From NCBI GenBank assembly GCA_973895155.1, contig OZ316896.1, positions 4,469,925-4,533,924 on the forward strand: DNA of 64,000 bases. Direction: 5' to 3'. Shown here in pieces: positions 1 through 38,434 of the stretch. A program made the position numbers and the translations under genes. Origin of the DNA: Marsupella aquatica. Its lineage: Eukaryota; Plantae; Marchantiophyta. Under the pieces are notes generated by a model. The model did no database searches. It was not told where the DNA came from and saw only the letters and a program-made list of their open reading frames with translations. Each line of letters opens with the position of its first letter. Position 1 is the first letter of the stretch.

Positions 1-594
1 GCTGCTGCTGCTGTTGTGCAGTCAGTGGTACTATATAAACTTTCTCGTGTCGTCGTAAAGAACGAAGGCTCCTCTCAACATTTCAGATTCCAATTTCCGT
101 CCACGTTTCAGTATTTGGGTCATAGGAACGACCTTTTGGGCGAGAACACTGCTAAATTCATTCTGTCGCCCTTAGTATATATTTAGTCTAGTGGCAATAC
201 ATGTATCCCTCAGATTCATTCTGACGCCTTTACCATAGTCACTATTCGGAATGAAACGATTTCATAGTTTATCGTTACGTCAAATCTCACTTCATTTTGC
301 AGCGACTAGTGAGGTCGCCCCTGGAGCTTCCCGTCTAGGCCATCTACAGATTGATAGTGAAGATCGTCACATTTAACTGAAAGGCTGGTCCATCTACAGC
401 TTCCCACTTTGAATCTCGTAATATTAAGTTCAGGATTGATGTTTCGGATTGAGGAAAGGGCGAGTTGACTTCGCATCTTAAGCCTTTGATATTATCTTGA
501 TGCATGTTAGCTATGAAGTCGTTCGTTGCTCGAATGTGTCCGGCTTCAGTGCAATTAATTAGCGCCAGCTCATTATGTTTTTTGTGCTCACCAT

Positions 595-3500
595 GTGGGG
601 ACCGTCCTGCAGTCTGGATCTATGGGAAGGACGGGCTGCAGCAACACTGTTGGGGCGGGGCCAAATGGGGCAGAACGAGAGAAGAGGAGGACGAGAAGTA
701 GTAGACCGGAGGCTATTGACGCGGCGCTAAGTCAGGCAGACCGAGAGAAGGAGATGAAGAAAAATATCAAGACAGAGAATACCTCCGTCGGACCAAGTGG
801 GGCAGAACGAGAGAAGAGGAGGACGAGAAGTAGTAGTAGAATGGAGGCTACTACTTACCCGGGACTAAGTGAGGCAGACCGAGTGAAGAAGATGAAGGAA
901 AGTATGAACACAGAGAATATCTCCGCCGGGCCAAGTGGGGCAGAACGAGAGACGAGGAGGACGAGAAATAGTAGTAGAACGGGGGATATTGACCCTGGGT
1001 TCAGTGAGGCAGACCGAGAGAAGAAGACGAAGGAAACTATCAAGACACAGTATATTTCCGCCGGGCCAAGTGGGGCAGTACTAGGGAAGAGGATGACGAG
1101 AAGTAGCAAACCGGAGACAATTGACGTCGGGCTAAGTGAGGCAGAACGAGAGAACAAGATGAAGGAAAATACCAACAAAATTGTAGACACGGGGATACGT
1201 GAGCCCCGTGGGGCAGAACGAAAGAACAAGAGGAAGGGAAATAGTAGAACGGCCACTGACACGGGGCTAAGTGGGGCAGAAAGAGGGAAGAAGAGAAAGA
1301 GCAAACCAAAGACAACTGGCGTGGGGCTAAGTGAGGCAGAACGAGAGACGAGGATGAAGATAAATAGCAAGCCGGTGACAATTGGCTTGGGGCTAAGTGA
1401 GGCAGAACGAGAGAAGAAGACGGAGATAAATACCAAGGAAACTACTGATGCTGGGCTACTTGGTGCAGAACCCGAGAACAAGAGGAAGAAAAATAGCAAA
1501 GCGGGGATTACTGACGCTGGGCTAAGTGGTGCGGAACGACAGAAGAAGAGTGAGGGAAACAGCAAAACGCCCCCTACTGATACGGGGCTATATGGGGCAG
1601 AAAGAAGGAAGAAGAGATATAGCAAAACGGAGTCGATCGACATGGGGCTAAGTGGGACAGAAGTGGAGAAGAAGAGAATTAGCAAAATGGAGACAATTGA
1701 CGTGGAGATAATTGGGGTAGAACGAGAGAAGAGGATGAAGAGAAAGAGCAAACCGGAGACAATCGACGTGGGGTTGAGTGAGGCAGAACGAGAGAAGAAG
1801 AGTAAGAAAAATAGCAAACCTGAGACTACTGAGGCTGGGTTAAGAAGTGCAGAACGAGAGTCGAAAAGGGAGAGAAATAGCAAAATTGCCAAGGACCAGG
1901 GCCTAAGTGGGGCAGAAAGAGAGAAGAAGAGGGCGGAAAGAAGCAAAACGGAGACTTTTGGTGCTGGGCTAACTGGTGCAGAGCGGGAGAAGAAGAAGAA
2001 GAAGAGAGATACCGAAACGGCCACTACTGACGCGGGGCAAAGTGAGCCAGAACGAGAGACGGAGAGGAAGAGGAAAAGCAAAACTAAGAATATTGACGCC
2101 GGGCAAAGTGAGCCAGAACGAGAGACGGAGAGGAAGAGGAAAAGCAAAACTAAGAATATTGACGCCGGGCAAAGTGAGCCAGAACGAGAGACGGAGAGGA
2201 AGAGGAAAAGCAAAACTAAGAATATTGACGCCGGGCAAAGTGAGCCAGAACGAGAGACAGAGAGGAAGAGGAAAAGCAAAACTAAGAATATTGACGCCGG
2301 GCAAAGTGGGGCAGAACGAGAGACCGAGAGGAAGAGGAACAGCAAAACGGAGACTATTCACGCCGTGCTCAATGGCGCAGAACGAGAAAAGAAGAGGAAA
2401 AGGAAGAGGAATAGCAAGAACGAGACTGTGGACGCAGCACCACGTTGTAAAGAGGAGCGAAGGAGGAAGAAGGGCAGTGTACAATCGGGTCCTGTTCAAG
2501 AGAAACGAAATTGGAAGAAAGACCGTGAGAATCCAGAACTTCGTGGCGGAAAGTATACCCGAAAAGAAACCTCCATGTTATGTAGTGGTGTTCAGAGTTA
2601 TCTCCAGAAGCGTGAGTGGGACTATCTCGAAGGATTAGAGAAAATACTGCGCACGTCCAAGCATAAAGATGCTCGGGGTTGTTGGATCGAAATCGCAAAA
2701 AGTTTACCATCTCGACCGATTAAATCAATCTACGAAAAGGCAAGACGACTCTATGAACGTTTTGTCGAGGGTTATACACGAGGGAAATGGTCATCTCAAG
2801 AGGTTGAGGAGCTAACGAGGTATATATACTCGCGATCTGATTTCCATACTCTTCTACACAGTGGTTGTTCTCCCTGTTTCTTTGAACCAGTTTAACTTCC
2901 TCATTAGAATTATTCTGTATTTTTGTACACCGAGTGGCCCGCGTTCGTCTACAAGAGTAGTCTTAGGTGTTTGTTGTGAATGTTTTTAATCGTATTTGTC
3001 ACTACCTAAGACACACGGTCATAAATATGTCATATGAAGGCTGCAAAAACTACACGGCGAGAACTGGGCGAAGATTGCAACATATATGGATCGATCTCCT
3101 GAAATCTGCAAAGACAAGTGGCGTCATCTGAGAGTCGCGAACACTTGTTTATCAGGTACTACAGCAAACTACTGGAACGCTAAAGTAGATTACTTCATAA
3201 ATTTATTTAAGAAACGGGTTGTTGTCTTCGCACGAGGGGTTTTCTGGCCGATCTAGATCATTATGTCCAAGTCGGTATAGTACTTCTCCCTGCTGCTAAG
3301 CTCACCGTAAGATGTCCAGGAAAATCTCCAAGGTTATGATGGATCCAGCACCATGCAGCCTCGTTCTCTTGATGCTACCTCCCTAGCCCCAACGAGGCAC
3401 AGCGCCAGTATCCCTTGCTCCGTTTTCGGAACGCGCAGGGGTTGAACCGACTGTTGTTTGTAATATCATGTAGGAGTGATGTAAGAGTGAGTGGAATCCA

Positions 3501-9131: not shown

Positions 9132-10968
9132 GGTGACCAATTCTTCCACTCCCGAGCAGAATTCTCAGAGAGCAGCCTCCTTGCTCTTCAAAACGAATCA
9201 GCAAATTTCACCACTGAATCCTCGACCCAAATTCCCTACGAGAACAAGCAATTCAGAAATCTTGAAACCCAAGAATCAATCAGACACGACCACCCAGAAA
9301 TCGCATGGGAAATCTTCGCCGAAGCGAGCGTACCCACAAAACTTGATTACTGGACGAGCACCAAAACATGTGCATCTGCTTCGAGCAGTGCCAGCTCAAT
9401 GATGGATAGGTGGCTGTCAATCCGTCTTTGCTGGTGTCCCCGGCAAAACAAGGAAGCAATCGAGGCCCTACCCATTGCTACGGAGGACTGTGGATGAGAT
9501 CATTATGTGGAAGGAGCAGACGACTAAGCGAAAGGGGTCAGGGTTGTAGTTAAGGAGATGTTTTATTCTTATTTTTTAAATGGAGTTTGTGAAACCCCAT
9601 AGAAAGGGAAGAGTTGGCCACAATAGTTGAACCCAAGACCTATCAGTCTCTACTCAAGTCAACTATCACAAATACTCAAGTCAACTATCACAAAGTCATG
9701 CCTCTGTGGGCTAGGAGATGTTTCTTAATTTGATGGACCCTAACTTAGTAGGTAAGATGGACCCTAACTTAGTAGGTTACACACATAAAAGTTATAACAT
9801 TACCAAATTCATAGTCCCTAACTATTTGCCATAAAGATTGGTCATACGTCCTCCTATATGCCTTGACCATAAGTCATTGTAGAGGCTAGTGACCTAATCT
9901 ACAAACCCTCTGAAAATAGCTATGGCCATTGCTTATGGCCAAAGTCATCATTCACACTTTGAAGCTTTAGACTCCCTAATCTACTTGTCCCAATAAACTT
10001 GTGAGAAGGTTATAAGCCTATTCCATCAACCCTTAGTTGAGGGCACTGAAATTAGACCGGAAGGCTCTAATGCCCCGATAAGAAGCTTGAACTAAGGTTT
10101 CCCTGAAATAAGAAACTACCTAGGTCTTGGCGTGCCCAAGATTCTCGGAGATTAAAGGGTTAACATATCTGAGGACTGATGGAACTGACACTACTCTATA
10201 AGCTTGAATATCTGAGCTAGCCAGGGTCTAAGGTAACAATAAGTCAACCTCCCGTCTGTAAGTCGGCAGGGAGATCCACTAGTGAGCACATGCATGCTAT
10301 TAATAGTCAATTAGGAATCCATCAGTGCTTAGCAATCCATTGGTGATCAATGATAGCAATCTGGCCCTGGGAATGGATACAACTGGAAGTGTAATCGAAA
10401 ATTGACAATTGAGCATCTTATTTTGTGTGCTTTACCTTCTGTTGTTACAAGGACTTAAAGTAGAGGCTTCCTCTACCGAATTACTTCCTTCTAGTTGCAA
10501 TCAAGATGGCTGCAGAGCACACTTTGACTCCTTCAATTTACACTCCTTTATTCCACATTCATCAATCAAGTTACAATGGGTGCACTTGAGTAGGACACTT
10601 GTGTGATTCTGATCGCTGGTCCTTACGGTGGGCTGCTACCTCTCTACCACCAAGTTCAGAACTTCTCAAGTCTCTCTTGTAACAGTAAACAATTGAAAAG
10701 CCCTTGCTTAGAACCAGCCAAGGGGCAAAGCTTCCTTACTTCCCTACAAAATTGCTACACGTACAACCTATCCAACTCATTCCAAACAATTCAACTAGTC
10801 TCCCTCTAAGACTAGTCATCAACAAACATGCAATCATCAATGAGTCCCTAATGAGCCTCATGACACCCCTTAAGTACTCTTCGAATAGGAATATTGTTGC
10901 CTGACATGTGTTGCCAAGGCAACCTCATCCAACCAGCAACTGAAGCCTCAATGTTGACTAGGACCAAG

Positions 10969-11003
10969 AACACAGTGATGGACCAAACGAGAAGTATGAC
11001 CAC
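10969..11003 (+). repeat. Left terminal inverted repeat
   Basis: 35 bp, 3 mismatches to the right TIR. Confidence 0.92.
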
Positions 11004-11532
11004 CAAACGAGAAGTGTGTTTTCGATTTCGCAAAAAACGGCGATCACTAAAATTAAGATCAAAAACACTATTTTGAGGATGAATCCAAAATCGCATCCAA
11101 CATTGGATTTCAAATCGAGATACTGTCGACACAAAAACAAAGAATTGTCACAATCCAGAATTCCGATACACTTCATCTAAAAAAAGTGCAAATTCCAAAA
11201 CCTAGAAAAACAATGCTTTTCATGTGATCCTTCTAAACGCTAAATCTGAGCGTCAAACAAAACGAGTAAAACACAAGATTTCATTTTCGCCATCAAAATG
11301 GCAAACTGAAAATGGGATACGGCGTATCCCATTTCGGATTCAACCGTTGAACGTGGACGAAAACCGCACCAAATCATTCTCTTGACGCTTCCATTTAACC
11401 TCGGTTTAAAAATATTTGAATTTTTAACTGCGGTAAAACCAAAAACTGTGAAAACTGACCGCGGACTACAGTCGACCCACACAGTTAGTTAAGTTAACCA
11501 GACGACATGTCCAGAAAAATTCTAGCCCATAA

Positions 11533-11876
11533 TGTTGAGCATAGACGACATTCGTAACGGCAAGCCCATGAACCATCCAACGCACAATAGTCGACACAGA
11601 GAGATACGTGGTTCACCTCCACATGAGGCTACGTCCACGGGAACACACAAGAGCTTTACTGCACTCTAGGCCGACCGGCCATACCAAGCATCCACAGCAC
11701 AAGCTCTCCCTATCTCTCAACTAGCTCCGTAACAATGAGCCTAAGTTCCACCAGGGTCTGGCATTAGCCCTGGCTATATACACAACAGCACTACCGCTAA
11801 CATTAGCTAAGTCCTAACCCAAGTTAGACTAACTGTGGTTAGCTCATGAGTCACAAGACTAGAGCAATATCTAACA
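11533..11876. mobile_element. Solo LTR (copia-type), 344 bp, nested in the TIR element
   Basis: TGTT...AACA termini, 5-bp TSD CATAA on both sides, and the gatacgtggttcacc...ctacgtccacgg motif typical of copia LTRs. Confidence 0.85.
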
Positions 11877-12437
11877 CATAACGCATGATGAATACGAGAT
11901 GGGATCCAAGTATCCACTATCATATTCAACCTCAATGTTTTCCACCTGCAACTTTGCATGAGGAGATCTTTCGACATGAATACCAACTGAGATCCATGGA
12001 TCCCATTTTTTTTGCAAATCCAAAAACTCATCGGGAAAACAGGAGGATGAATACCAGATGGGATCCATGAATCCCATCTAGTATTCAACCTCTACATTTT
12101 GAAGTTTTTGCATCGCATACCTTGATATTCCAGTTTGAAGACCAACTGGGATCCACGGCGACTTCCTCAAAAATCTACAATTTAAATTTCAGCATTCTTT
12201 GAAAAGACAGACTCTCACATGAAAAAACCCTCGTACGGACCAATCAGGGAATGCCATGTGTCCAATGCCCCCGAAAACTATAAAAGGAAGAGCTCGCATC
12301 TATTTTTCATCTTCATTTCTCGCGATTACTTTGAGGTTCATTCAGTATTGAGTAGTTGTTTTCATAGAATACTGTAATCTGAATTTTCTCTGTTGGATAG
12401 GAATATGTACTCCTATACAACCCTTGTTGGATTCTCT

Positions 12438-13890
12438 ATGGCGTCTTCAAGTGATGAGTCAATTTATAGTTCAGATGCATCTTCGCCAGATGTTGTTCAA
12501 AAATTTATTCCATCTCTTTTGATGAATGAATTACCAGCCTCGCAGAGAGTAGTGTCAGAGATTTCATTTTCCTCAGAATCTGAGAAATCAGAGTCTAATT
12601 CAGAGTCTTGTAGGAGTGTTGTGGGTGCTCCGATTTCATACTATGTCTCTCCAAGTAAACCTCTTAAACGACGTCTACTTGTAAAGAAGCCTAATGTAGT
12701 TCCTACGACAGAGACACCTGGTTCACCGTGAACCAGACATATCTTCAAAGATGAAGGCCCCGGTTTTTAATGCCAAGAACAATGTTACCATGTAGGCCCG
12801 CCCGAAGATCTCCGTTGGCTTTTCCAATGTCTCATTCTCCGAGAGTGAAGATAGTTGTGTCCAGTGTTCAATCACAGTTTGAGCGAATGAGGAGTCCAAA
12901 TGTGCCAGAATTGCAGGGAGGGGCAGCCTCGGAGCCAAATTTGGTGGGTCGAATACCAAGTGGGATCCGTGGATCCCACTTGGTATTCCCTACTCAAATG
13001 TTGAGAAACGGTGAACGCGAATTGCCTATTTTGTCTCCTTCAGTACCAAATTCCTTGGGTCAAATACGAAGTGGGATCCATGGATCCCACTTAGTATTCC
13101 CTCGTGATATTTTGCAGAATCCTGTGCCCGAGTCACCGGTCTTGCGGACTTCCAACCCGAGTTCCGATGGTGGAATGCGAAATGGGATACGCGGATCCCA
13201 GTTCGTATTGCGCAACGGAAAATTACCAAGTCATGACGCAGAACAGCAAGTGGGAAAGTTTTCACTTCAAAGTCCCGAAGGACGAATACGAGTTGGGATC
13301 CATGGATCCCAATCGGTATTCCCATCAGTTATTTCACCGAGTGGTAAAACTAACAACATGGGGCTTCGAAGCCCTTTGGCGAGGATGCAGTGTGAGGTTT
13401 TTGGATCTTCCATTGGACGGCAAGTGCAGAACGAAAGAGGGAAGAGATCTAGTGTCCAGAAAATTCCTCGAAGATTATTGCGAAGTGAGCTGTCGGAGAG
13501 AGGGCCCAAAAATTCAAGGGTACATGCTAAATTGAAACTTGTCCAAAGATTATTCAATGGTCAAGATGAGCCCTCAAGTTGAGAAGAATCACCTAGGCTG
13601 GGATTACAATCTCAGAGACAAGTGGGCGGTACTCCGACTGAAGATGTGAATATCATTAGAAGATTTCAAACTAGAAATCTCCGAACACCTATTACATTTT
13701 CAGAAGACTCTGAAGAAAGATCAGAGGAGGCTGCAAATGATAGAGAGACTGCTGTAATCTCAAATATTGTTGAAGAGATCCTGGGATGTGAGATTGTTCA
13801 TGAAACAGTTACAGAAAATGTGGAGAGTGGAAACAACTCTACAGAAGATCTTTTTGTTTTGAATTCTAATTCACTAGAAAATAGTGGGGG
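12438..13890 (+). pseudogene. Ser/Pro-rich ORF of the TIR element, possibly the 5' exon of the transposase gene, disrupted by a frameshift and a stop
   Basis: ORF pieces 12393-12731, 12770-13582, 13622-13894; GTAAGT donor at 13891; homologous peptide conserved in the relative at 33762-33974. Confidence 0.5.
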
Positions 13891-13959
13891 GTAAGTTCTC
13901 CCGACACTATTCAGGGTAGAGTAGAGGTGACATGACCCAGCAAGAAAATCAGAGATCAG

Positions 13960-16326
13960 ATGATTAGAAAAGATAGACTTACCATTGCAAATCTAAAAAA
14001 ACGCAAAATTAAAGATATTTTTAAGTATCCCTGTTGTGACAAGTTTTGCTTGAGGTCTCTGGGTCTAGAGGAATGCTCAAAACAACGCAAGTATTATTTT
14101 GGTCTTAAACACTTGCAAAAAATATTTTGCTACGAGGTTGTATCATGAACAACTGTAGTACTTCTCGTGGATATAGTGTAAATGGACAACCTATATGTAG
14201 AGGAGGATTCAAGAAACTATATTCTTTAGGTAATAATAGATTGGCAACAATCCATGCAAACATGTTTACAAGGATTGAACGAGATACCTTTTGTAAGGAA
14301 GACTCACCTTCATTTCTAAACTTGGTGGAATGGTTGAAAGATTTTTTCCAAAAAAATATGGATAGTCTTCCCCATAAAGAGATTCATCACTTGCCAGACA
14401 ATTGGACAAAGCAAGAGATACATGGAATTTTTGAAGCTGAAACAATGTTGCGAGAAGAACAACAAGTTACATATTCTTATTTTTTGCGTGTTTGGAAAAA
14501 AAACTTTCCAAATGTACGAATTCCTAAAAGGAGTCGATTTTCTACTTGTGGTCCTTGTACTGAATTCAAGGCTCTTCGGGACAAAGCAACAACTGAAGAG
14601 GATAAAAGTAAGTTCCACTAACTATAACCTTCAACGTTAATTTGATGACATGTAATTCAATATTTGTCAAAGTTTATCCTTAAGTAGTTATTGATTTTTA
14701 ATTCATTGCTATTGTATCATTTCAGGAAAGTACATCAATGCCCTTATGGAGCATCGAAAAGTACAATCATTGGAAAGGATGAAGTTAGCCAAGCATCGTA
14801 AAAAATGCTATGATGAGCCCAACAAGTATTTGGTTATTTGTATAAATGGTATGGATCAAAAGAAAACAGAGCTACCACATTTTCTTCGTTGTCCAAAGAA
14901 CATGGATGAAAAATATTTCATTCCAATACATGTTGTAGGTTGTCTCATCTTCAACAGGAACCTTGCAGCAAAAGTATTTTTGACATATCCCAATATCCAT
15001 AATGATGCAAACTTGACCATACATGTTATTCAAAATGTATTGAATACATGGGATGGGACATTACCAAGAGTGTTATATCTTCAATTAGATAATACCACTA
15101 GGGAAAACAAGAATAAATTCTTGATGACTTATCTTTACATGTTAGTAGATTTGAAGATTTTTGACAAGATTAAAGTGGGTTTCTTGTTGGTCGGTCATAC
15201 ACATGACCAGATAGATCAGATGTTTAGTAAATTTTTGTCTAGGTTAAACAAGCACAAAGCATTTCGCTTGGAGACTCTTGAGGATATTCTTTGACGAGTA
15301 TATTCAACTGAAGCTTTGATCATATTTGTGGATGAAGTAGCCGATTTTCAAAAATTTGTTAATGAAAATGACCAGCCAAATGAGAAGGGAGTCTCAGGTA
15401 GAGTCTTGAGAGATCTCAATCTCATAACTTTTCAAAGGCAATTCAGATTCAAACGAGTCATGGAGGATGGAAACGAAGAGACAACATTTCACGGGAAACA
15501 TCTTTCCACGACCCAGGATTGGGGAGATGCATTGACGTTCGTCAATTACATTCCAACTTCAAGAATGTGGGTTGCTGCACAAATGTCACTGAAGTCAGCA
15601 AAAGGTGTTGAGAGGGATGATGTCCATGATTCTTCCAATACAGATGGTGCATTAACTACTCTGGTGAAATATGAAAAATCTATCCAGGAAGGTTTCAATT
15701 ACTTTGACAATGAAGATAAACTTTGGTGGATGAGTTTTTTTGAGAAACAAAAAGATATTATCAAAAACCACCTAGATGAAGGTGAGTGGTTATTTGAGTG
15801 GGTTTGGCCGCAACAAAATCAAGGTGCACAACTACTTCAAAGGGTGAGAAATGAACTTGTTGAAGAAGGTGTTGATCCAACTTTGGTTGACAAAGTTGAT
15901 GGACCACAGAGAATTATGTACTCCGGACCTCGACAAAAGCAAGTTGAATTTGGAGATTTCAGAGATATGGAAGTTAACAATAAGTGATCCATGATATGTG
16001 TAGCGGCACACAAGAATCCAGAAGGCAAGTTGTTTTGGATGGCAAAGGTGTAAAAGATTTTGACAAGAACTGCAAACATTCCTGAGAGAATCAAAATCAC
16101 ATGGTACACAACTGAGGCAAGTGCTGAGTCTGCTATTGATGGGAAATATTTTCCAGAGAAAGATAATATATCTAATCGACTTCTCCAAGATGAACGAGTT
16201 CTATCATCAACAGCGGTGTATGCATACAACTTTGCGCTTTTAAGTACTAATCAAATAGCAGCAAAAACTAAAAAAATTATAGAGTCTGCTATATTAGAGC
16301 GAGGTTCTGCACACTCAGAGGATTGA
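13960..16326 (+). pseudogene. DDE-type transposase, DUF7869/Sola-like, with intron ~14608-14725 and several stops and frameshifts
   Basis: Cys-rich N-terminus (CCDKFC, CRGGF, FSTCGPC), INGMDQKKTELPHF, LYLQLDNTTRENKN, GFLLVGHTHDQIDQMFSK; TGA at 15292-15294; C-terminal FWMAKV...IKITWY beta-barrel-like segment. Confidence 0.8.
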
Positions 16327-16337
16327 GATTGATGTCT

Positions 16338-17230
16338 TTAAACAGGTACATGCATCAATTTTAGAATTTGATCTCGAATGAATTTTCTAAGGTTACATGC
16401 TCTTTTACAATTATACCATTTTTGGGTAAATAAAGACTGTGCATCAAGGCATTGTGTAATATGCCATTGAATTCTGATTTTGTCCATATTTTGAAGAACA
16501 AATAGACCACAATCCGAATTGTTTGGTTGTTCAAGTACTTGAGAAAGAATCTTAAAGTTAGTCCAAAGTGTTTAATAATTGAACTAAATAAAAGTTGAAA
16601 TAGCTTTTCAAATCCTTACCATTGGATTGTAAATCTCCACAACTCCCATTGGAACTTTTCCAAAAAATAATTCCCATTCCATTGTAAAATATCTGCAAAT
16701 TATCATTCAAAGTTCTTAGTCCAAAGTGTTTATATTTATGTACCACATAAATATATTCAAATTGAAAAAATGTAATAGAATAGATAGATACCTGCTCAGT
16801 ATTGATCCAATTACATGGGTTGAGTGTAGACCGGCGAGAGAGTCTAGAGATGATACATTTTGATCGAAGATTCAATCCAATCCAAACATATTACAACCAG
16901 ACTCCAGTGCATGCTCATGTGAATTGGCATGAGAATGACCTCAATTTGGGAAAATGGTGGCTTGTAATAATTCCGCATCTTTTGAATTGATTCCAACAAG
17001 GTCTCAGCTGGTTCTGTTTCAATCCTTGAAACAAGCCAAGGGTAAAAAAAAGAGGATAATATGTTTACTGAGGGAGCCAGATCTCCATGTTCCTCGGTTA
17101 TTAATTGTGGGTAAAATTCCATTATTTCATCACCCAAATATTGACCGGGTTCAAGTTGGCTCAATGTTTTATTGTCCAAAAGAAATCCACTAGAAGGATT
17201 GTGTGAGAATCTATGCAGAACATGTTTCAA
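16338..17230 (-). pseudogene. Ulp1/C48 (SUMO-type) cysteine protease, disrupted
   Basis: LEPGQYLGDEIMEFY, ILSSFFY, MPIHMSMHWSLVVI (catalytic His), DSL after a frameshift, and QPNNSDCGLFVL (catalytic Cys) at ~16495-16530; stop at 16338-16340. Confidence 0.8.
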
Positions 17231-17363
17231 TACAAAATCCTCCTTTGGTTCCTACAAAGACATTACTTTGTGAAATAAGAACATAGTCCAATCATAATCT
17301 TCCTCAATATTTCACAAGTTTGGATTAATAGATACAACATGACAGAACTAATCAAACTTAAGT

Positions 17364-18473
17364 CTACACCTCAAGGAATGAGCCAAGATCAAGTGTCGAA
17401 GCTTCATGTTCCACTTCATCCTCTTCATCCTCATCATTGTTGTTCTCCTCCGCGGTTGTAATGATGCAAGTTCCAGTGGTGAGGGTGCTCGTAGTACCAC
17501 CAATAGGTGGTTGAACCTCAAAGCTCATGGGTCCTGTACCCTCCTCGGTTGCTTCATCATTCAAGTCCCACGATTCATCAAGCATGACAAGTCGGGTCCG
17601 GATACAATCCACCTGGCTTGCACTGAGCTCCACGGCTGTCACCGGACGTTTCCCTAACAAGGCAGCGCATGAGGTCAAACCACTCCCCGCACATAAATCA
17701 GCAACCCAATCCCCTGCTTCACTAAAATGTTGAATGAACCAATCTGCTAGAGCTATCGGCTTCTGGTAAGGGTTCACTATTTCCCCCAATGGTGTTACAC
17801 ATTTCTTTGTAATACAAGGGACTTTTATGATGTTTACCTTTTTCTCATCATGTTCAAAATTGTACATGTCTCTGGTCCTAATACCACTCTCGTGATAATA
17901 TCCGATTGACCAGTTTTCAAAAGCCCAAGCCAATCGATTCCCGGAAGGATGAGCATGTACATTTGGCTTCTCCCAAATTCCAGCCTCTACACCTACGTTA
18001 CAAGTTTTTCCAAGAGCATTCATCACAGACCAACTTTGCTGCAAAGAGTGAATCACAACAAACCTCCACATCTTTGAACTTGTCACCTTGGCAAAACACT
18101 TCACCATATCCACAATATCACTCTCTGAAAATGGGACCTCATCATTTTCAGAGCCAGGCGCATTGAATCCATAAGGAATGTCTGCAATTGCAAGTGTGTA
18201 ATTCCTTTTCTCTACAAACTTATCCAGCGCCCTGACATCTCCACAATGCAATGTATATCTGATGAAATTTCTGTCAGCATTTTTCCATCGATGGTCACTC
18301 GACTTTGCTTCAACCGTTTCAATCCCACAACGATGGTTGTAGTTCTCAATCGCTTCTTGAACATAATTCTTAAACCTTGGGGGAATAACACTCGAAGTCA
18401 GCTCCTCCGTAGGTTTCTCAACCGCATCGGCACCAATTGCATCCTTGTTCTTCTTCTTCGAAAAAGCTTTCAA
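17364..18473 (-). CDS. Beta-class (circularly permuted) N6-adenine/N4-cytosine DNA methyltransferase catalytic exon, open reading frame
   Basis: Motif IV LAIADIPYG precedes NPYQKPIAL...GDWVADLCAGSGLTSCAA...VTAVELS (motifs X, I, II); TTGCAG acceptor at 18474. Confidence 0.88.
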   Translation of the reverse strand: MKAFSKKKNKDAIGADAVEKPTEELTSSVIPPRFKNYVQEAIENYNHRCGIETVEAKSSDHRWKNADRNFIRYTLHCGDVRALDKFVEKRNYTLAIADIPYGFNAPGSENDEVPFSESDIVDMVKCFAKVTSSKMWRFVVIHSLQQSWSVMNALGKTCNVGVEAGIWEKPNVHAHPSGNRLAWAFENWSIGYYHESGIRTRDMYNFEHDEKKVNIIKVPCITKKCVTPLGEIVNPYQKPIALADWFIQHFSEAGDWVADLCAGSGLTSCAALLGKRPVTAVELSASQVDCIRTRLVMLDESWDLNDEATEEGTGPMSFEVQPPIGGTTSTLTTGTCIITTAEENNNDEDEEDEVEHEASTLDLGSFLEV

Positions 18474-18949
18474 CTGCAAACATAAACTTGTTAAAAGAAT
18501 CCGGAGAAAAGACAATGGGGAGATAACCATTTAGGAATTCAAACAATCAAATCTGGATGATAAATGCGACATGGAATACCCCGTATCCCAGTTCGCATTC
18601 AACCAAGCACAAACCACATTGAAACATCACCAACGTCAAATAACCACAAGTGAATCCGAGATGGGATACCCCGTATCCCACTTCGCGTTCAACCAAGCAA
18701 AAACGACATGAAACATCACAAACGTCAAATAACCACAAGTGAATACGAGATGGGATACCGCGTATCCCACTTCGCATTCAACCAAGCAAAAACCACATTG
18801 AAACATCACCAACATCAAATAAGCACAAGTGAATCCGAGATGGGATACCCCGTATCCCACTTCGCATTCCAACAAGAAATCCACGAAGAAAACCTCCGAA
18901 CATGGCAAAACAAATAGAAAAGTCCAATCAATGGAAGGGGAGAACATAC

Positions 18950-20779
18950 CACATCGGACAATTTCTCACTCCATCTTTCGAGCTCGGCAGATTCTGTTTC
19001 TTTCGGAAACATTTGTTTGCAAGTCGCCCAGTCTGGCTGCCCTGACAACTGAACAAAAAGCTTGTTGATTTTCACAAGTTTCTTGTAACTCTCGGCTTCT
19101 TTTGCCATCTGCTCCAAAGAGATCATCCGGTCTTTCACTCGGAGAAGAAGGGACTCCAAAAATTGGTCGTGTTCAATTCCCTGGATTGCTCTCCAAGGTG
19201 TCAGGGTAAGGCCCCCTGCAAGCTTATTCAAAGCTTTTGGAATCGACTGCGCTTTTCCCTTTCCTTTCTTGAGTTTCTTGATCGATGACTTCTGCTTATT
19301 CTACCCATTGATCTCCAACTTGTTCCACATCTCAAAGATCTGGTCTTGGAGTTCCCAGACCTTACCCGACCTAAACGCAATTTGGAAGAGAGGCTCATGC
19401 TTCTTCAGGCTTGTGGCGTCCCCCGAAAAAAACCCGTCGAGGCAAACCTCCATCGCACACGCTTCTCTAGTCTCCTTGGTTTTTGCCATTCCTCTGGCAA
19501 GGAAAATCTTATGCATTGTTCGGATTTGATCAATGTTGTTCATTTTTTTCCTGTACTCCTAATCAATATTATGTTGGATGCTAAGTTTCTGAATGTTCTC
19601 CCTTGTGAGACCAGCATACACCCAAGCTTGGAGTTCATTGAAGATCTCTCTCCCATAAGCCTGATAGTTACAATTCTCTCTTAGCCCGAGCACCGTGATT
19701 ACCTCCAATCACTCGATATCTCTAGCTCGTTGCTATCGTTGAGTTCTCGTCGTCAATATCGTCAACAAGAAGCAGGTTAGTTGATTTCAGAATAACTATT
19801 ATCTTCTGAACTCGCTTGGTCTCCATCAATCAAGACACTTCTTCACAAACCATAAGTGTCTCTTCCCGCTGCAAAGCTGTGGTGATATCTGTTGAATCGT
19901 TTTTCTTTTCTTTAACAGCTCCCCTAGATGATAAAGAAGGCCCACCTGACAAAGTTGAAGGAATCTGAGACGGTGTCTGTGAAATTGGTGGGACCAAAGA
20001 TGAGACAACACTTCCGGGTGCAGAAGGCGCGCGCTTTTGGATGTCACGTCGATCCAATTTCTTCTTGCCAATAGCTTCTCCTGACACCGCTACTTTAGAA
20101 CCTTCCCCGGAGAGTTGATCTGCAAGCTTCCTCTTTGTCGGGTTCCTTAAAAGAAACTATGGCAGATTTCTCCTTTGTCGAGGGTGTTCTAGACATTTCC
20201 CCTGACTTCGAAGCCGGATCGGTAGGCTTCGCCACTTTCAACTTCAAAGGCCGCTCTTTGACGCCAAAGTCGGCTCCAATGATGGACCTATATGCTACCT
20301 TGGTAAAATCCTCAACAACCGACCAAGACTTCAAGACAAATTTCAAACACCAATAAGAAAAGTCCTCAATCTCTGGCACTTCCGAAATTAGCTTGTAGAT
20401 CGGGTCATTAGGAAATGTGTTCATCGAGACCCGATCAAGTTTCTCGTAGTTGAGGACAACTACAGTGAAGGCATTGTTCGGAAGAATGCAAAGGTACATT
20501 GGAATCTTCTTCAGCTATTTTGTTTTTGAGTTAGTGATATCCGCCTCCCCAGTGTCCACGACTAATCCATAATGGCAATGGTCTTTACCCTTAACTATAA
20601 CCAACCACACCGCTGGACCTTCATAGGCTCTGTGAATATCCATCGCCCGAGCATCCCTGAAGTACCACCTATTCCTCATGAGTTTCTCCTCCGTGTAAAG
20701 GTCCTTCTTCCAAATCTCATCGACGATGGATGTCCATGAAGACTGGGTCGAACCAGACGACTTGGATTTGCTCGACATG
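18950..20779 (-). pseudogene. N-terminal part of the methyltransferase gene, including a ParB/Srx-like domain; has stops and frameshifts
   Basis: Starts MSSKSKSSG; manual translation ~19735-19545 gives YRVIGGNHGARAK...AWVYAGLTRENIQKLSIQHNID; GTATGT donor at 18949 joins in frame to the MTase exon. Confidence 0.6.
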
Positions 20780-21652
20780 ATCCTGAAAAAGATTGACACA
20801 CTTAGAACCAGACCAAATTTTGGGCATAAACATTCAAAAGAAGTAGTTGAATGCAAGATCGGATACGCGGTATCCCACTTCGCATCCAACATCAACAATT
20901 GCCTAGAGTCTGATGCAAAGAACGAAAAAGAGGGAGTTGAATGCAAAATGGGATACGCGGTATCCCACTTCGCATCCAACCTCAACAATTGCCTAGAGTC
21001 TGATGCAAAGCACAAAAAAGAGGGAGTTGAATGCGAAATGGGATACGTAGTATCCCATTTCGTATTCAAAGTCAACAAACAGCGAGGAGGTTCGGATGGA
21101 AGACTAAAAAGAGGGTGTTGGATGCGAGATGGGATACGCGGTATCCCATCTCGTATTCAACATTGAAAAGAATACTCTCTACGTATTCAATAGAGAGTTG
21201 AATACAAAGTGGGATACGGCGTATCCCACTCAGGATTCAACAATGAAGTGCGCCAAGGAGGTGAGAGTTTCTTGAGTTTTTACCTATTATTTGTTTCGAT
21301 TCGAGCAAATACAAAAAGCTATAGAGATGTTGCGGCCCAAGAAAAATGCTGAGGCAAGCGAAGTTGAGAAGAAAAAGAAATGAGCATAAACTTTCTGACC
21401 AGGCGATAAGGTTTCCACAGGCGATAAGGTTTCCACAGGTGTATCCAAAAGCGTAGGGTTGGAGTCCGGAGGTCTATTTATACTTTTTTCTCTTGATAGG
21501 ACTTTGTTTTTGACTAGAGATAAGGCATATCCCCAAGTCCTTGTATTAAACCAAATAGATTTTACGCGTAGCGAATGGGGTTGATGCAAGGGTAATCACA
21601 AAACTTTTTATTCATCCGAAATTGTGCCACAAAATAAACTAAGTTGATATTC

Positions 21653-22270
21653 TTAAAAAGAGTCTTTACAAAGTGCCCATTCAAGATAAGCAGTCCAAAA
21701 CATGAATGGAAAGGCTCTAAACCAGACTAGAAGCGCTTCCCCATACATTTCCAAGAGCCTCGCTTGCTCATCTTTCTCAAGATTGTGCCGGTCTTCTTGA
21801 AATCGATTTAGGTCAGACCTTGAAAATAAACCTAAGAAATCGATTGGAGGAAGATTCAGTGTTTCCATCCTAACAAAAGCTTCAATATGAACATTCTGAA
21901 GGGGTTTTCCATCGGGAATGCTTGTCAGCATTTCATTTACTTCCTCAAACTGGCTTTTTGCTAGTCTAAGAATACCCCATACTCGTGTACGAATTACGAG
22001 CTGGTTCCATTTCTTGGAGGTGCATCCAAGCCACACCATTGTTTTTAATAGCATCAATCTTTCATCAGCTTGGTTCTTGGAGGAATCAAATTTATCCTCT
22101 ATACAACAAACTTTCAAAATGGGCCAAATGAACGTTTCAACAATCTCATCAGGAAGTCCATCCAAAAGCAATCTGGATTCCCTTTGGCCACTTTTTTGTT
22201 GAATTTGTTTCTTCTCTTTGTCAAATGACATCGCTAACCTTGTAAAGACAGGGTTCTCAGTGACGGCCAT
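21653..22270 (-). CDS. F-box-like protein (transposon cargo)
   Basis: LLDGLPDEIVETFIWPIL...LGCTSKKWNQLV matches the F-box pattern (LPDEI...CKxW); 205-aa open ORF. Confidence 0.6.
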   Translation of the reverse strand: MAVTENPVFTRLAMSFDKEKKQIQQKSGQRESRLLLDGLPDEIVETFIWPILKVCCIEDKFDSSKNQADERLMLLKTMVWLGCTSKKWNQLVIRTRVWGILRLAKSQFEEVNEMLTSIPDGKPLQNVHIEAFVRMETLNLPPIDFLGLFSRSDLNRFQEDRHNLEKDEQARLLEMYGEALLVWFRAFPFMFWTAYLEWALCKDSF

Positions 22271-22446
22271 TCCAAAATAAGAGTGGATACCTGGAGTAAT
22301 AAATGAGATGGTGAGCTCTTTCTCAGCAACCTACAAAACAATGATGGAAAAACTGATTTTATTTCTTTGATCAAAAGAAAAATATATTCACTTAATGTTT
22401 GACCCAAGAATGTTCACCTAAACACTTACACACTAATCAAGAAGAT

Positions 22447-22836
22447 TCAAAGCGATAAGTTAACCCAAGGATCTTCGTTCCAAATCCGACAACACAAATA
22501 TGCCAATCGATGATATTTGTTTTGGGCATCACGACAATAATTACAAGAAGAATTAACAGAGTGCAGACAACCACTCAAACATATCCTCGACCGAATCGGA
22601 ACTCCGTCCTCATTTTTTTCACAAAACTCTATTCGGAGTGGATTCAAACTATCATGTGGATCCACGTCTCCCGTCCATAGCGCGCCTAATCCAGGACGAA
22701 GAACTTTGAGTGCAACTAATCGCTTATACAATCGACGAGCACGTTTCTCACGGTTTTGATTCTGGACCGCCATTAGACTCACAAGAGAAAACTTCGTTTT
22801 TCTTGGAAAGCTTAAGCTTGAGTCGGTGTCGGTCAC
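22447..22836 (-). CDS. Small Cys-containing hypothetical protein of the TIR element
   Basis: 129-aa ORF with CxxGC...CxxC; no family recognised. Confidence 0.3.
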   Translation of the reverse strand: MTDTDSSLSFPRKTKFSLVSLMAVQNQNREKRARRLYKRLVALKVLRPGLGALWTGDVDPHDSLNPLRIEFCEKNEDGVPIRSRICLSGCLHSVNSSCNYCRDAQNKYHRLAYLCCRIWNEDPWVNLSL

Positions 22837-24082
22837 TGAAAGGCAGCAAGAGCTTCAGTGCGTGTTTAGGTTAACTTCGCCTACGAAACAATCAGCAATC
22901 CATAAGGTTTTTCCCATCATTCAAAAAAACTCTAGGTAAATACCACATGAGATACCCCGTATCCCACTTCGCATCCAACCTCCATTTTTAGCTAAAGAGA
23001 AATCAAAATTGGACATTTGAAGAGTGAATCTTAAACGGGATACGTCGTATCCCATTTCGCATTCAACGTTGAGGTTTTGACATTTGGAGTCTAAGATGCT
23101 TCATATTCGGAGGTTGGATGCGACATGGGATACCCCGTATCCCACTTCGCATCCAACCTCCGTTTTTAGCTAAAGAGAAATCAAAACTGGACATTTGAAG
23201 AGTGAATCCCAAACGAGATACGTCGTATCCCATTTCGCATTCAACATTGAGGTTTTGACATTTGGAGTCTAAGATGCTTCATATTCGGAGGTTGGATGCG
23301 ACATGGGATACCCCGTATCCCACTTTGTAGGGGTATCCCATGTCGCATCCAACCTCCTTTTTTAGCTAAAGAGAAATCAAAACTGGACATTTGAAGGGTG
23401 AATCCCAAACGGGATACGCCGTATCCCATTTCACATTCAAAGTTGAGGTTTTGACATTTGGAGTCTAAGATACTTCATATTCGGAGGTTGGATGCGATAT
23501 GGGATACCGCATATCCCACTTCGCATCCAACTCCTTTTTTAGCTAAAGTGAAACAAAAACTGGAATTTGAAGGTTGAATCCCAAACGGGATACGCCATAT
23601 CCCATTTGGGATTCGTCCTCACCATTTTCAAGAAGATTCTCACCTGTTAGTCAAAACTGATTTTTGGGGAATACAAGTTTGTATAGACGGTGTGCATTCG
23701 TCTAGAGTAAGAGTAAGAGAGCGAGAAAAAATGAGCGGAAAATTCTCAAGCGGTGATCTCCTATTTATAGTTTTCTCTCTGACCGTGGTTAGTATTTGAC
23801 TGCAGTTGCATCGCAGTCAGTTAAATGTTATCGTTGAGAAGAATCGTTTTGGAATATTCTTGTCGGGTAAACCAATATCGGCACTTTTACTGCGTTTGTT
23901 TTTGTTTTTTTGGAATTCCGTGGTTGGATCCGAAATGGGATACGCCGTATCCCATTTTCGTATTCGTGTCGATTTTTCCCATTTTTTCAATTCAAAAAAC
24001 TAGTTTTTAGGGGGAATACTAATTCCGTATCCAAGACTTTTTTGCCTTAGAAACTTTTTTCGCCGCGGGCAAAACGAGAAGT

Positions 24083-24117
24083 GTGGTCACACTTCTCGTT
24101 TGGTCCGTCACCGTGTT
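24083..24117 (-). repeat. Right terminal inverted repeat
   Basis: gtggtcacacttctcgtttggtccgtcaccgtgtt followed by TSD caag. Confidence 0.92.
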
Positions 24118-24471
24118 CAAGTTATTAGCTGATTGGATCCCCATTCTATCCAACACTGTCCCCTAGCCTATCTAACTTGACATATGTAACTGACTGGCCA
24201 AAATGTTTGACACTACATTCTCCCCCAATAAACCAATAGGACTCATCAGAATTTGCCTAATAAAGTCAGAATCTGACTCACTTCATGCACCTGGACCACT
24301 TTGTCATCATCTATTTCAAACAATTCAAAACCTAAGTCCTCAGAAAATCCATTGCATCCCAAGCCCGATCCCCAGTTGCTTCAACCTCAACAGTGATTGT
24401 ATTAATCAGCACGGGGTCATTCCATCCTGATTTCTCTTGAACATGGTACCCAAATGCTTGTAAGTTACTCT

Positions 24472-25703: not shown

Positions 25704-28700
25704 GCTACTTGCTTAAATTGGCTGCAATCAAGACACATTCATTGATCAGGTTACTGACAATGGGTGCTCTTGAGTAGGCCACTTGTGTAAGTCTGGTCGC
25801 TAGATCCTACAGCAGGCCACAGTTACCTCTCTCCCAACAATACAAAATCTCTTAAGTTGCTTTTGTAATAGTAATCAATTGAAAACCCCTTTGCTTAGAA
25901 CCAGCCAAGAAGCAAGCTTCCTTAATTCTCTCACAAAATTGCTACACAACCTATCAGGCCAACTTATTCTAACTAACTCAACTAATCTCCCTCTCAGATA
26001 AGCTATCACCAAAACACGCATCAATCCAAAGAGCCTCATTGACCTTCTTCAAACAGCCTTCCATCACCTAGAACAACCAGCAAAGAGCCCTTGGCCAACT
26101 GAGTCACTGGCACCCCTTAAGTAGTCCTTGAATAAGAATATTGTTGCCTGACATGTGTAGCCAAGGCAACCTCATCCAACCAGAAACCCTCAATGTCGGC
26201 TAGGACCAAGTCACTATTTGATCAAATCCTCTTTCTATCCAACAGTCACCTATCTAACTTAGCATATGTGACTGACCGACAATAGATCACCAGCCAGTAG
26301 ATCTCCAACAGTAAGTTTTGGGCCAAAATGTTTTGGCACCACACCGTGTCCACCTAACTAATAGTAAAGAGAGCCAAGTGAATACATGCTACCAAACTAC
26401 TACCTGCATGAACACCCATGAGCCAATCTTCAAATTAAATTGCATATTCATCTGCTTTTGAAGAAGTTCTGGCCCCATTTCTTTACTTTCCAGTTGGGGA
26501 TCATTTTGATGAGACACTTCAAGTCCTGGTGTCACATGCACTTCATGATTGATGACACATTACTCAGGATCTATCTTCCAGCCTTAATTAGTCAACCCTA
26601 TATGAGAGGGCTCTCTCAAGTGCTTCAGTTCCTCCAGATCATCCCTGAATTTGAAGAATGTACATGGCTTCTAACCATCTAGACCCTCTGTAGAAGTCAA
26701 GATACATGTTGCATCAATGGTTTTAGTTTCTATTATTGTTACTAGCATGATGCCAGGTGTTACACAATAATTGCACAAAAGCTATTAAGGTGAGGCAAAG
26801 AAATGCACATAAGACAACTGAAGGACGTTGAGGCATCCCTGGAGGCATCTTGTAAGTCATGGCGGCCCATGTGGTTTTCTGGACGTCATTGAGTGGTCAT
26901 GATTTTGGCGAGGTTTTTGGGTGTGCAAGTTTTGTGTGCAGGAATGAATTGGAAAATATAAGTCAACTATCACAATAAGACATAACTTGTAAGAAGCATA
27001 TACAAACATGAGAACAAGATAGTCATTTGCAAGGGATGCAAACCTTCATCATGCGCAAGGGGTCTACAAGGTGGGAATGAAAGAGGGTTAGTTGTTGTTC
27101 CAACCAATATGTCATCTATGCAAAAATTTCAAGATGAGGCAAATATAAAGTGATGATTGTCATTGCAACCACAGGGATGTTGGTGCAACAGTACCTGGAC
27201 TGAGGTGCATTGCACAAAAACATCAAGGTGGATTAAAGAATTGGAAGTGAGGCAAACAAGTTTGTGTTTTGACAGTGTCATCTGTGGATTCATGTTAGTG
27301 GTGGCAGATTTTAAGATAAAATTGGATAGCACCACGTCACATAGAACCAGTGTAGAACATACAACCAATATTGACACAGAGATATGTAGTTTACCCGGTT
27401 TAGGCTAAGTACGTTGATGGCCAAGAAAAATTATCACCATTCCCTACCACCACTCAGTGTACATTTGCCATTAAAAGCCTAGCAAGCCACATGTTGTGCG
27501 ATCTATGGTGGATCCTCCTTTCTCTCTCCAGATTTCAAGTCCTGAAGTACCTTTAGTCTGAACACAATGAAATGCTCCTCTAGACTATATGCTCTCTTCA
27601 CTAGACTACCCCCAACCCAGACCTCAACAACCCTTAACCATGGTTAAATTGTACTCTAATTAACCTAACCAGATGCTAGAGTTAGGTACCATGTTGTTGT
27701 ATAATTTATCATTTTGGTTTGTGTTGTCGTGAAAGTGTTACTGTTTGAGAGGATGAGTGTGAGGGTGTGGGGATGCAAGATGGGTGATTTGGCTACAACA
27801 TTGCAGAGTCAAAGCACTGATGTGGGTAGGCCATCATCCCTAGTGTTGCCCCATTTTTGTCTAGCTATATAGACATGCTTATGCGCGCACAAGCAAACTG
27901 ATGTACAATGTAAGCATCAGGAAAAGTATCTGTATTTATGAATCGACTAGGCAGCCCAATGCCCTGCCCAATTCCCATGCATCACACAAAAAATGTCAAG
28001 GTGATGCAAAGAAATGCAAGTGAGGCAAAGAATTTTGTTGAGGCATCTTATGTGTCCTTGACACAACTGAAGGGTGTGTCTTCGAGACAACGAAGTAACT
28101 GAGGCGCAAAAATGTCATCAAGGTAAGGAAGTAGTTGAGAAATGGAGTGTTGTGGTGGAAATGTAAACTTTTGAACCTAATGTCCATGCGTCGTACAGTT
28201 ATCATTGTGACTATGTTATTCTTGTGACCGGGTTGGTACAGACTATAGTCGTCTCACGATTGTCATTTCAATTAAGGGGACTCAATATTTGGGCTGCTGT
28301 GAAATATTGGCGTCTGCATTGTGGGTTGAACGACCGTGGCCCACGGCACTTGTATCCTTTGCCATTTTACAAGCCAAAGGACAATTACTGTAAAAATATG
28401 GAAGGCCCAAATATTGAGACCTTTTATTGAATTGTCATTGCAGAAGTTGTAATTCCAACTGTGTGGGTTGAATGATTGATTTGAAAGTATTATTGGCTGA
28501 ACTAAAGTTGAGCTTTGTGGTGGGGCCAGAAAATGGCTCCAATTTTTTTTCTGCGCATCCTATTTCTCCCTATATGATTCTGCAAGATGCATGGTACAAT
28601 AATACTAAGAGAGTGCATTTGCAACAGTTTAGCTTTTGTGACCAAACCTATTTGGTCACCGGCCTGCTTATTAACTTTTGTGACCAAACCTCTTTGGTCA

Positions 28701-33149: not shown

Positions 33150-35150
33150 AAAAGTGCAGCCAGTTATTAGCAGGTGAATAAGTTAGCAGGTAGCCTTGAT
33201 TAGTCTTGAGCAGATGGCAAAAGCGAGAGGCCAAGAGCTACATAAAAACTGGTGAAAATTGGCAAACTGTCTGCACAATTGTCTGGCCAGCTGGATTGGG
33301 CAACCTGTAAACGGATGTTTCCAAAGGAAATTGAATCAGCCGAGTTGGAAGATGGAGTGGGAAATTATTGGATGTGGTAAGTTTGATCTTGTTTTTTTGG
33401 TTTGAATCCAAAATGGGATACAAGGTATCCCAGTTGGGGTTCAACATTGCATTTTGAATGGTTGGAGATTGCTTCTACTTCTTTCTAAAGTTTGAATACT
33501 GAATCGGATACATGGATGTACCCCACCAAATTTGGGTAGGAGAGTGCCCAATTCTGGCACAATTGGGCTTATCATTCGCTTAAATTGTGACTTCACACTA
33601 GACAAAGCTATCTGGACTTCAGGGGACCACGACAGTGCAAAAACCAAAGGAGATCGTCGGGCGGGTCTAATTATATGGTAACATTGTTCTTGGCATTAAG
33701 AACAGCGGCCTATGTTTGGGTGGATCGGTTGGGTTTGCACTGAACCACTAGTCTGATCAAGCTACGGAAATGACATGAGACTTCTTCCCAGGCAACTGTG
33801 CTTAAGAGGTTTACTTGGAGAAACATTATAAGATGATGGAGCTCCAACAACACTCCAACCAGACCCCGAACTCTCCGAATCTGATGACAATAAAATCTCT
33901 AGTATAATTCTTTGCGAGACTGAAAGTTCCTTCATCAAATGAGATGGAATAAGTTTGCGGACAACATCTGGCAAAGCTGCATTGGAACTATAAATTGACT
34001 CCTTACTTGAAGACGCTGTCTAACCGTTAACAAAGTTGTGTAGGAGTTTAGGGTTTAGGCCAATTAAGAAAGTTCAGATCACCAAAATCTAAGAAAAGAA
34101 ATACTCATTAGGCAAGAACCTGAAATGAGTCAACAAAAGTGAAAAAAAATTAGATGCAAGCTTGTTCTTATATAGTTTTGGGGAAGGTGTCCATGACTGT
34201 GGCATTTGCTGATTGGTCCGTACCAATTTCTTACAGGGTTACAATTGGATGCGACTGGGGCTGTGATAAGCAATGACAGATCCAAAGTCATCTCTTTTTT
34301 TGGAGTTGGATCGACAAATGGGATCTGTGTTGGTATTCAAACCTCAAATATTGAGACTCGAGGTGCAGCGAGGGCAAATTTTGGTGGTTGAATACCTGAT
34401 GGGATTCACCCTACATTTTTATTGAGTTGTTTTTGGACTTGGGAAAACCAATGGGATCCCTGTATCCCATTTGGTATTCACACTGGGTTTCTAGTGAGTT
34501 GTTTTACGACTTGCAAAAAAATTTGGGATCCATGGATCTCTATTAATATTCCACCTATAAACCGTGAAATGGAGAGTGGCAAATCTTACTATAAAAGCGC
34601 CAACTGAGGTCTACTTTTAAGAACCTAGGTCTAGAGTGAAGTCTCTAGACCGTAACTCTATGGCCATCATGTGCATGGGAAAAACTGGTGTCATGGCTAT
34701 GATACTATGATGTATGTCAAATGGTGCATGCAAGTTTTTTGTGATAATTTTTAAGTATTTACATTCAAAAAATATGGGCACTTTGGCCCCACCTTAACAT
34801 ATGTGCATAGAAGGTGGATGTGTATACAAAAAGACTGATGTGCTCAAAAAGGAGAATGATATATTATATATGGTTATAAAAATGATGGGTTTTTTATCAT
34901 TTCATTAAGCCTTCAAAGAATATAAATAAAAAACATATTTTGATAATATTTTTATTGTTCTCTGGGTTTGTTCACGTTCAAAGAAGGGGTAGTTGGGGCT
35001 AGTGTGGAATAAAAGAGTTTGAATACGATATCAGATGCAGTATCCCATGTGGTATTCATGTGGCACTCCAGATTGAAATATGTTCAAAGATGTGTTACTT
35101 TGGGTTAACTTAGGTAATTGTGTAGATTGACTGTGGTTGACAATAAATAT
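33150..35150 (-). mobile_element. Inverted, internally deleted and decayed relative of the 10969-24117 element
   Basis: 33205-33380 matches the MTase-gene exon (EQMAK...LSGQLDWATCKRMFPKE, same donor site). 33520-34020 matches 12400-12950. Palindrome copies occur at ~33402, 34305, 34440 and 35018. 35095-35140 matches 11460-11510. Confidence 0.8.
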
Positions 35151-35344
35151 TGTGCGATGGATTATTTTACCCTTGGTAAATATTCAAAGCTAATTTTACA
35201 CCCCGATCTACTCTCATTGGCAGCCTCCAACTCATGATCTCATGTCCATACTCCCCGGTTTGACCTTGCCCGTCAAACTGGGCGTTTGAGAGCGGCAAAT
35301 TGACAACCCGGCACCCGGGTTCGGAAGCAGTCCGGGAAAGGAAA

Positions 35345-38298: not shown

Positions 38299-38434
38299 AG
38301 ATTAGGGTTTACACAATTTTGTAAAGGTCACCTTAACGATTATATGTTTATTCATTGTATGTCAATTACAATGTTCTGCATTTTGTTGATAATATTCTAT
38401 CAAACTTTGTCGTGAATGCCCAAAATTGTGCTAA

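Follow-up and report, generated by a model that had tools for sequence, protein, structure and literature searches.

Why would a plant transposon carry a DNA methyltransferase of prokaryotic type, and on which DNA would such an enzyme act? The question is raised by a stretch of 64,000 nucleotides, here called the window, in which a preliminary description recognized a beta-class amino-methyltransferase exon. It matters because N6-methyladenine (6mA) is described as lost from major multicellular lineages (10.64898/2026.05.21.726589, available part). Here we report that the exon (exon 2) is the 3' portion of a gene with two exons and about 975 codons, in which the methyltransferase is fused to a probable ParB-like region, and that the surrounding element carries palindromes that this protein may recognize. 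The copy in the window is dead; its family is not.

The exon had been placed in a plant transposon, and inverted ends matching at 32 of 35 bases do bound a DNA transposon here (Table 1). In public runs, low-depth contigs from the flanks stop at 10997/11009 and resume at 24088/24091. Contigs internal to the element reach about 7-20 times the flank depth, contig depth not being equal to true copy number, and the longest of them (run X1) lie within about 0-2% of the window sequence. We read the family as recently amplified, on contig depth rather than copy number. The transposase is 48% identical to the open C-terminal transposase part of L001, one of five related metagenome loci (L001 to L005) from a single data set. 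By its motifs it may be Sola-like. The flanks of this one decayed copy (CCAA/AAGT) show a duplication of at most 2 bp, AA, and none of the 4-bp type of Sola1-1_Ec32; because at most AA is duplicated, we do not file the element as Sola1. No rules for Sola ends were found in the available part of PMC4455052.

Table 1. Features of the transposon and its methyltransferase gene (window coordinates)
Feature	Position	Strand	Remarks
DNA transposon copy (decayed), multicopy family	10968..24118	.	13,151 bp
Left terminal inverted repeat (TIR)	10968..11002	+	35 bp; preceded by ...CCAA
17-bp palindrome, 19 copies in element	11314..23953	.	all outside exons
17-bp palindrome, individual sites	11314; 18573-18858 (4); 20860-21227 (5); 22949-23603 (8); 23937		
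Very high-copy repeat insert	11533..11750	.	unrelated to element; depth spike, loose contig ends at 11533 and 11749
16-bp variant GGGATCC-N2-GGATCCC, six copies	11988..13311	.	upstream of transposase
Transposase, DUF7869	13301..16326	+	PF25273 E 4e-41; probable intron near 14615-14724; 5 stops, 2 frameshifts
Ulp1/C48 SUMO-protease-like gene	16338..17251	-	two pieces, broken; PF02902 E 6e-10
Exon 2	17364..18473	-	open; DIPY, YQKP and DLCAGSG within a beta-class amino-methyltransferase domain, plus an acidic tail
Intron	18474..18950	-	phase-0 GT-AG; contains four 17-bp palindrome copies
Exon 1	18951..20778	-	N-terminal domain, low-complexity linker, probable ParB-like domain (GGNH), helical region
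225-codon open frame	21653..22330	-	inside element; no Pfam match
Right TIR	24084..24118	-	35 bp; then AAGT...

The neighbouring transposon genes are broken, as had been stated, the transposase by the lesions listed in Table 1. The Ulp1-like gene consists of a DCG piece at 16338-16571 and a second piece, with a 2-bp indel at 16846 relative to the run contigs; no such gene lies between methyltransferase and transposase in L001 and L004. In both of these loci, as in the window, the methyltransferase fusion gene lies on the strand opposite the transposase. The CG ratio of the element is mildly depleted (0.45-0.74, versus 0.93-1.01 in two host genes). Together with the TAG and TGA stops, this depletion fits host methylation of the window copy.

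Several other repeats lie in and around the element. An inverted match between 12.0-12.9 kb and 33.5-34.5 kb was considered as a pair of element ends and rejected: its identity is 67%, and it is part of a second, internally deleted relic. This relic (33197-34540) is an inverted older relative of the element. Its segment 33522-34480 is 67% like 11977-12948 and adjoins 33197-33511, which is 66-75% like 18583-19125 (the end of exon 1 and the intron); a copy of the 17-bp palindrome stands at 33415. A broken serine-rich frame at 12438-12900(+), between palindrome clusters at the left end, is also preserved in the relic (33.5-34.0 kb); it may be an initial exon of the transposase or a further accessory gene. 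The repeat insert at the left end is 65% like 51780-51975. The element is flanked by a 70%-identical direct match (10554-10968 and 25734-26210) that belongs to another repeat family and is possibly an insertion target.

Does the exon encode what it appeared to encode? Translated on the minus strand, its 369 codons are free of stops, and an acceptor AG occupies 18475-18474, so the exon is open and its boundary exact, as first described. The class assignment is upheld as well. Motif IV (DIPY, residues 98-101, of the pattern (D/N/S)xP(Y/F/W)) precedes motif I (DLCAGSG, about residue 260), which is the beta order, and the exon matches PF01555 (N6_N4_Mtase) with an E-value of 6.4e-7, exceeding the curated cut-off. 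An AlphaFold model built on an alignment of 24 relatives (pLDDT 71, pTM 0.70) was compared with 48,161 chains by VIA-align. The top 11 rows were all beta-class DNA amino-methyltransferases (Z 19.3-15.4): CcrM was the best match (Z 19.3, rmsd 3.7, 213 residues), and MboII (18.6), N4CMT (17.0), RsrI (16.8), PvuII (16.6), BceJIV and HpyAVI were also at the top. Foldseek ranked the families in the same way. The preliminary description had asked whether RNA or protein methyltransferases might be the best structural matches. They are not; MTA1 (12.0) and METTL3 (11.7) score lower, and on these scores, as on its Pfam family, the exon does not belong to the MT-A70/METTL3 group. Judged by its best matches, the domain is predicted to adopt the fold of a beta-class DNA amino-methyltransferase, a permuted Rossmann fold nearest to CcrM, MboII and RsrI.

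That this exon is open while its neighbours are broken fits chance, a caution already voiced in the preliminary description. Elsewhere in the element there are 15 lesions in about 1981 codons, from which 2.8 would be expected in 369 codons and none with a probability of 0.06; the codon totals in this calculation are estimates, and the exon was chosen post hoc. Selection on this copy is not required. Five of the seven listed differences between the exon and the public-run contigs alter the residue (the count comes from 40 listed of 2,447 differences to the contigs), and at positions 57, 68 and 297 the window departs from the residue kept by relatives and by the runs.

The remainder of the gene lies upstream, in ruins. 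Exon 1 begins at an ATG at 20778 and is spread over three frames, with five stops (20517, 19832, 19724, 19561 and 19303) and two frameshifts (near 20140 and 19665); compared with L004, some 45 codons are missing. Because of these stops and frameshifts we regard the window copy as a pseudogene. A 1-bp insertion near 20140 and a 4-bp insertion at 19665 are absent from most public-run contigs, and once both are removed the three frames join by frame arithmetic. The same arithmetic attaches the open reading frame at 20.1-20.8 kb to exon 1, and we reject it as a separate gene; in L002 and L003 an intron splits the two corresponding parts, and there we infer the join. The family may share some of these stops, or the gap of about 45 codons. 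The intron between exons 1 and 2 is found at the same place in all five related loci. A search of representative proteins gave 427 matches, and among the 150 listed are long single-frame relatives whose N-terminal region includes a GGxH motif as well as a helical linker. In the window these parts correspond to 18.9-19.7 kb; single-frame relatives in Chara and elsewhere have the same region fused to the methyltransferase. The gene is thus a two-exon fusion, its first half probably containing a ParB-like region.

The ParB-like assignment has modest support. In the atlas, clusters that carry the name ParB_N reach 0.93 with the N-terminal domain, ranked behind unnamed and DUF3723 clusters, and a full-length relative brings up phage fusions of ParB_N and N6_N4 at 0.86-0.87. 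Aligned by hhalign with 75 phage ParB-methyltransferases, the domain is collinear with an E-value of 0.006; the probability is only 6%, yet the score exceeds those of 30 of 30 column shuffles. Pfam, PHROG, PDB profile and phage tblastn searches, in which relatives were scanned, returned no ParB match for this domain, an absence that excludes nothing. A single-sequence model reached a pLDDT of 36. The arginine of a GxxR motif is a feature of CTP-binding ParB; since it does not align in this domain, we do not claim clamp behaviour.

What might such a domain bind? The window contains 20 matches to the palindrome GGGATAC-N3-GTATCCC when one mismatch is allowed, against 0.03 expected from shuffles. 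The 19 within the element sit in the intron, upstream of both the fusion gene and the 225-codon frame, and singly close to either end of the element. L001, L002, L004 and L005 have another motif, GCGA(G/T)AC-N2-GTCTCGC, and L003 a third, a 16-mer; all 47 palindrome sites of the five loci lie outside the ParB and methyltransferase exons. Six copies, the window included, therefore display three distinct motifs without cross-matches, and the four loci that share a motif also have the closest proteins. This pattern fits a family-specific recognition of palindromes, although three states among kin cannot prove co-evolution.

If the window copy is dead, is the gene maintained elsewhere? Among 1,561 candidates, 24 are close relatives, with 46-76% identity. 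A DUF7869 transposase lies tail-to-tail with the gene in two of the five loci; the other three contigs stop at most 470 bp past the gene end. In pairwise comparisons of 246 core codons, synonymous sites are saturated for 14 of 15 pairs (pN 0.12-0.30), and the fifteenth, L004/L005, gives an omega of 0.06. All three frames of L003 are open. These relatives are under purifying selection, the outcome of the dN/dS comparison to which the preliminary description had looked, with omega given by the one unsaturated pair. Each of the 22 close rows that span motif IV has DIPY or DVPY there, and within the clade of the window conservation extends to the QKP motif and to motif I. Among wider relatives motif IV is often eroded (DFPC, DLPR, DIPH), and many of these are probably pseudogenes.

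The named distant relatives come from Chara braunii (12 of 15 matches in one search), Ginkgo and Adiantum. In a quick tree the window clade has a support of 99 and groups with Chara, fern and Ginkgo rows at 93; long branches meet in this tree, which can resolve neither a donor nor a single eukaryotic origin, and at the motif-cutting step 5 of the 47 rows from the eukaryote side and 2 of the 15 from phages were lost. Scans that reach close relatives only gave 111 pattern matches in viral contigs and 23 in prokaryote genomes, none of them confirmed. Six distant methyltransferase relatives (P0138, P0141, P0176, P0177, P0180 and P0182) end in Cys-rich PHD-like fingers, that of P0177 with a weak match to PF00628, which suggests chromatin-reading versions in other eukaryotes.

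On balance we lean towards a self-targeting function: the intact protein would bind the palindromes of its own family and place 6mA on the element, whose expression would then persist in the face of host 5mC. In intact relatives this would be a nuclear protein of about 1,000 residues. Its probable ParB-like domain would bind the element's own palindromes, and its beta-class domain would methylate adenines in element DNA. Most likely, the mark would keep the element's promoters open against 5mC silencing by the host, a VANDAL-like anti-silencing; it may also license the element ends for transposition. A more ambitious lock-and-key reading, which we hold only tentatively, is that in each family of land-plant DNA transposons the ParB-like domain and a private parS-like palindrome have diverged together, the domain directing an active bacterial-type enzyme to place 6mA on that family and no other. 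If it is true, there would be real, local 6mA in land-plant genomes thought devoid of the mark, and an anti-silencing device inherited since streptophyte algae.

The base itself could be disputed. The same self-targeting system might write N4-methylcytosine (4mC) instead, thereby blocking host 5mC at the same cytosines. A D-type motif IV is also found in some 4mC enzymes, and the model fold, which is without power to separate the bases, lies as near to N4CMT (Z 17.0) and PvuII (16.6) as to 6mA enzymes. Moreover, 4mC is tolerated by liverworts (10.1101/2021.02.12.428880, available part), and the authors of the Ectocarpus study discussed below leave the base undecided in the accessible portion of their text (PMC12477816). 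The profile E-values of exon 2 in a PDB profile search, however, favour the 6mA enzymes HpyAVI (2e-16) and MboII (4e-12) over N4CMT (3e-6) and PvuII (9e-4). Across 119 aligned rows, drawn from 171 proteins, the first residue of motif IV is D 111 times and S twice; it is SPPY in none of the 119, and a single protein of the 171, of bacterial type, contains SPPY at all. DIPY, considered compatible with adenine enzymes in the preliminary description, is indeed motif IV of HindIII-like N6-adenine beta methyltransferases (PMC12294265, available part). Adenine is therefore the likely base, and 4mC seems to us quite improbable. The motif comparison likewise lends no support to the earlier suggestion that such elements were a vehicle for the acquisition of DN4MT1 or N4CMT.

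Nor need the domain be an active DNA methyltransferase. It could persist as a module that binds SAM, DNA or RNA, or it could act on RNA, in a protein that serves transposition through end pairing or targeting. The methyltransferase domains borne by DIRS elements have been judged inactive (PMC4738411, available part), and palindromes do stand near both ends of the element (11314 and 23937). We think this unlikely, given that motif IV, QKP and motif I are conserved under strong purifying selection and that RNA methyltransferases have far lower fold scores. Far less probable still is that exon 2 is a domesticated host gene, under selection and becoming a DN4MT1-like host enzyme: exon 1 is destroyed, an open frame would arise by chance with P of about 0.06, most of the listed differences change the residue, three of them away from the relatives' consensus, and the copy is enclosed by intact element ends. 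The idea draws on the length of exon 2, which no other open frame of the element exceeds, on an ATG 57 bp upstream of it, within the intron, and on the host, which is probably a liverwort.

How does the self-targeting fusion compare with known systems? The closest precedent is the Ectocarpus transposon Sola1-1_Ec32, which encodes a 1104-residue protein with ParB-like and N4C/N6A methyltransferase domains and for which self-binding and self-modification have been proposed (PMC12477816, available part). Compared by description, the two agree in probable domain order and in the strand opposite the transposase, and are similar in size (1104 residues and about 975). They differ in that Sola1-1_Ec32, from a brown alga, is 21.5 kb long with a 282-bp TIR, AACCG ends and a 4-bp target-site duplication, whereas the window element, from a land plant, measures 13.2 kb and has 35-bp TIRs, GAACAC ends and no 4-bp duplication. 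Its palindromes and Ulp1 gene also have no counterpart in the accessible description. In red-algal Plavaka elements, PAG2 combines a PF01555 methylase with SET and PAG3 a ParB-like domain with a 2OG oxygenase (10.1101/2025.02.11.637652, available part). Here too methylase and ParB-like accessory genes occur, and inverted-repeat arrays beside the ParB-like gene are proposed binding sites, but the two domains are in separate proteins, on EnSpm-type elements.

Phage fusions of ParB_N and N6_N4_Mtase (phrog_498; for example AUR95847.1) resemble the window gene in probable domain order and in their DPPY-type beta methyltransferase. Phrog_498 is the best PHROG match of the window methyltransferase, and the phage fusion profile matches it with a probability of 98% (E 4e-14). 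These phage proteins differ in being about 400 residues long, intronless and 23-27% identical, with a weak match to the N-terminal domain. DN4MT1 of Marchantia, also a liverwort enzyme, and N4CMT of bdelloid rotifers are, like the window gene, beta-class amino-methyltransferases of bacterial derivation in eukaryotes. DN4MT1 is a host gene that makes 4mC, with TSPPY and no extra domains (10.1101/2021.02.12.428880); N4CMT, a 4mC-making host gene as well, has SPPY and a chromodomain (PMC8885841), both as described in the parts available. The window gene is neither: it is not a stand-alone host gene with TSPPY, its motif is DIPY rather than SPPY, and a Pfam scan gave no chromodomain match. DAM-bearing retrotransposons also encode prokaryote-like adenine methyltransferases, linked to raised 6mA and transcription (10.64898/2026.05.21.726589). 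They differ in their DAM domain and in being DIRS and LTR retroelements, and the available text of that work mentions neither PF01555 nor Sola.

The ParB-like and methyltransferase architecture, and the idea of self-modification, are thus already published for brown and red algal transposons. Together with the probable N-terminal ParB-like fusion, the palindromes and the death of this copy, this precedent lies beyond the preliminary description. What is new is a land-plant family that retains catalytic motifs, along with putative cognate palindromes. The available part of PMC4738411 lists no beta-class clade of this kind in land plants, and our literature search, which left most subscription journals outside its reach, found no paper on such a gene in a land plant. 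With motifs kept under selection, apparently recent amplification, a host probably related to the tractable Marchantia and three natural pairings of protein and palindrome, the family opens two questions to direct test: do transposons mark their own DNA, and is any of the 6mA in plants genuine?

The window holds other features outside the element. A 778-codon open frame at 559-2895(+) consists of 66-nt (22-residue) repeats and has no Pfam match. A probable hAT element occupies 35300-46760. It has G+C-rich arrays of GGGTCC-type repeats at 35.3-35.9 kb and 46.0-46.7 kb. Between them lie a kinase frame (36634-38298) and a RING frame (38435-40444), both intronless, and, on the minus strand, a hAT transposase interrupted by one stop (42512-45526). 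A long uninterrupted frame of the Rad51 family lies at 47962-49056(+), and Copia-type gag-pol fragments (PF22936, PF13976) at 61983-62789(-). An intronless NADP-isocitrate dehydrogenase at 54165-55661(+) is 95% identical to a protein of Calypogeia fissa and 86% to that of Marchantia, which makes a leafy liverwort the probable host; the top-scoring row in its search was a longer Brassica record, at 72%.
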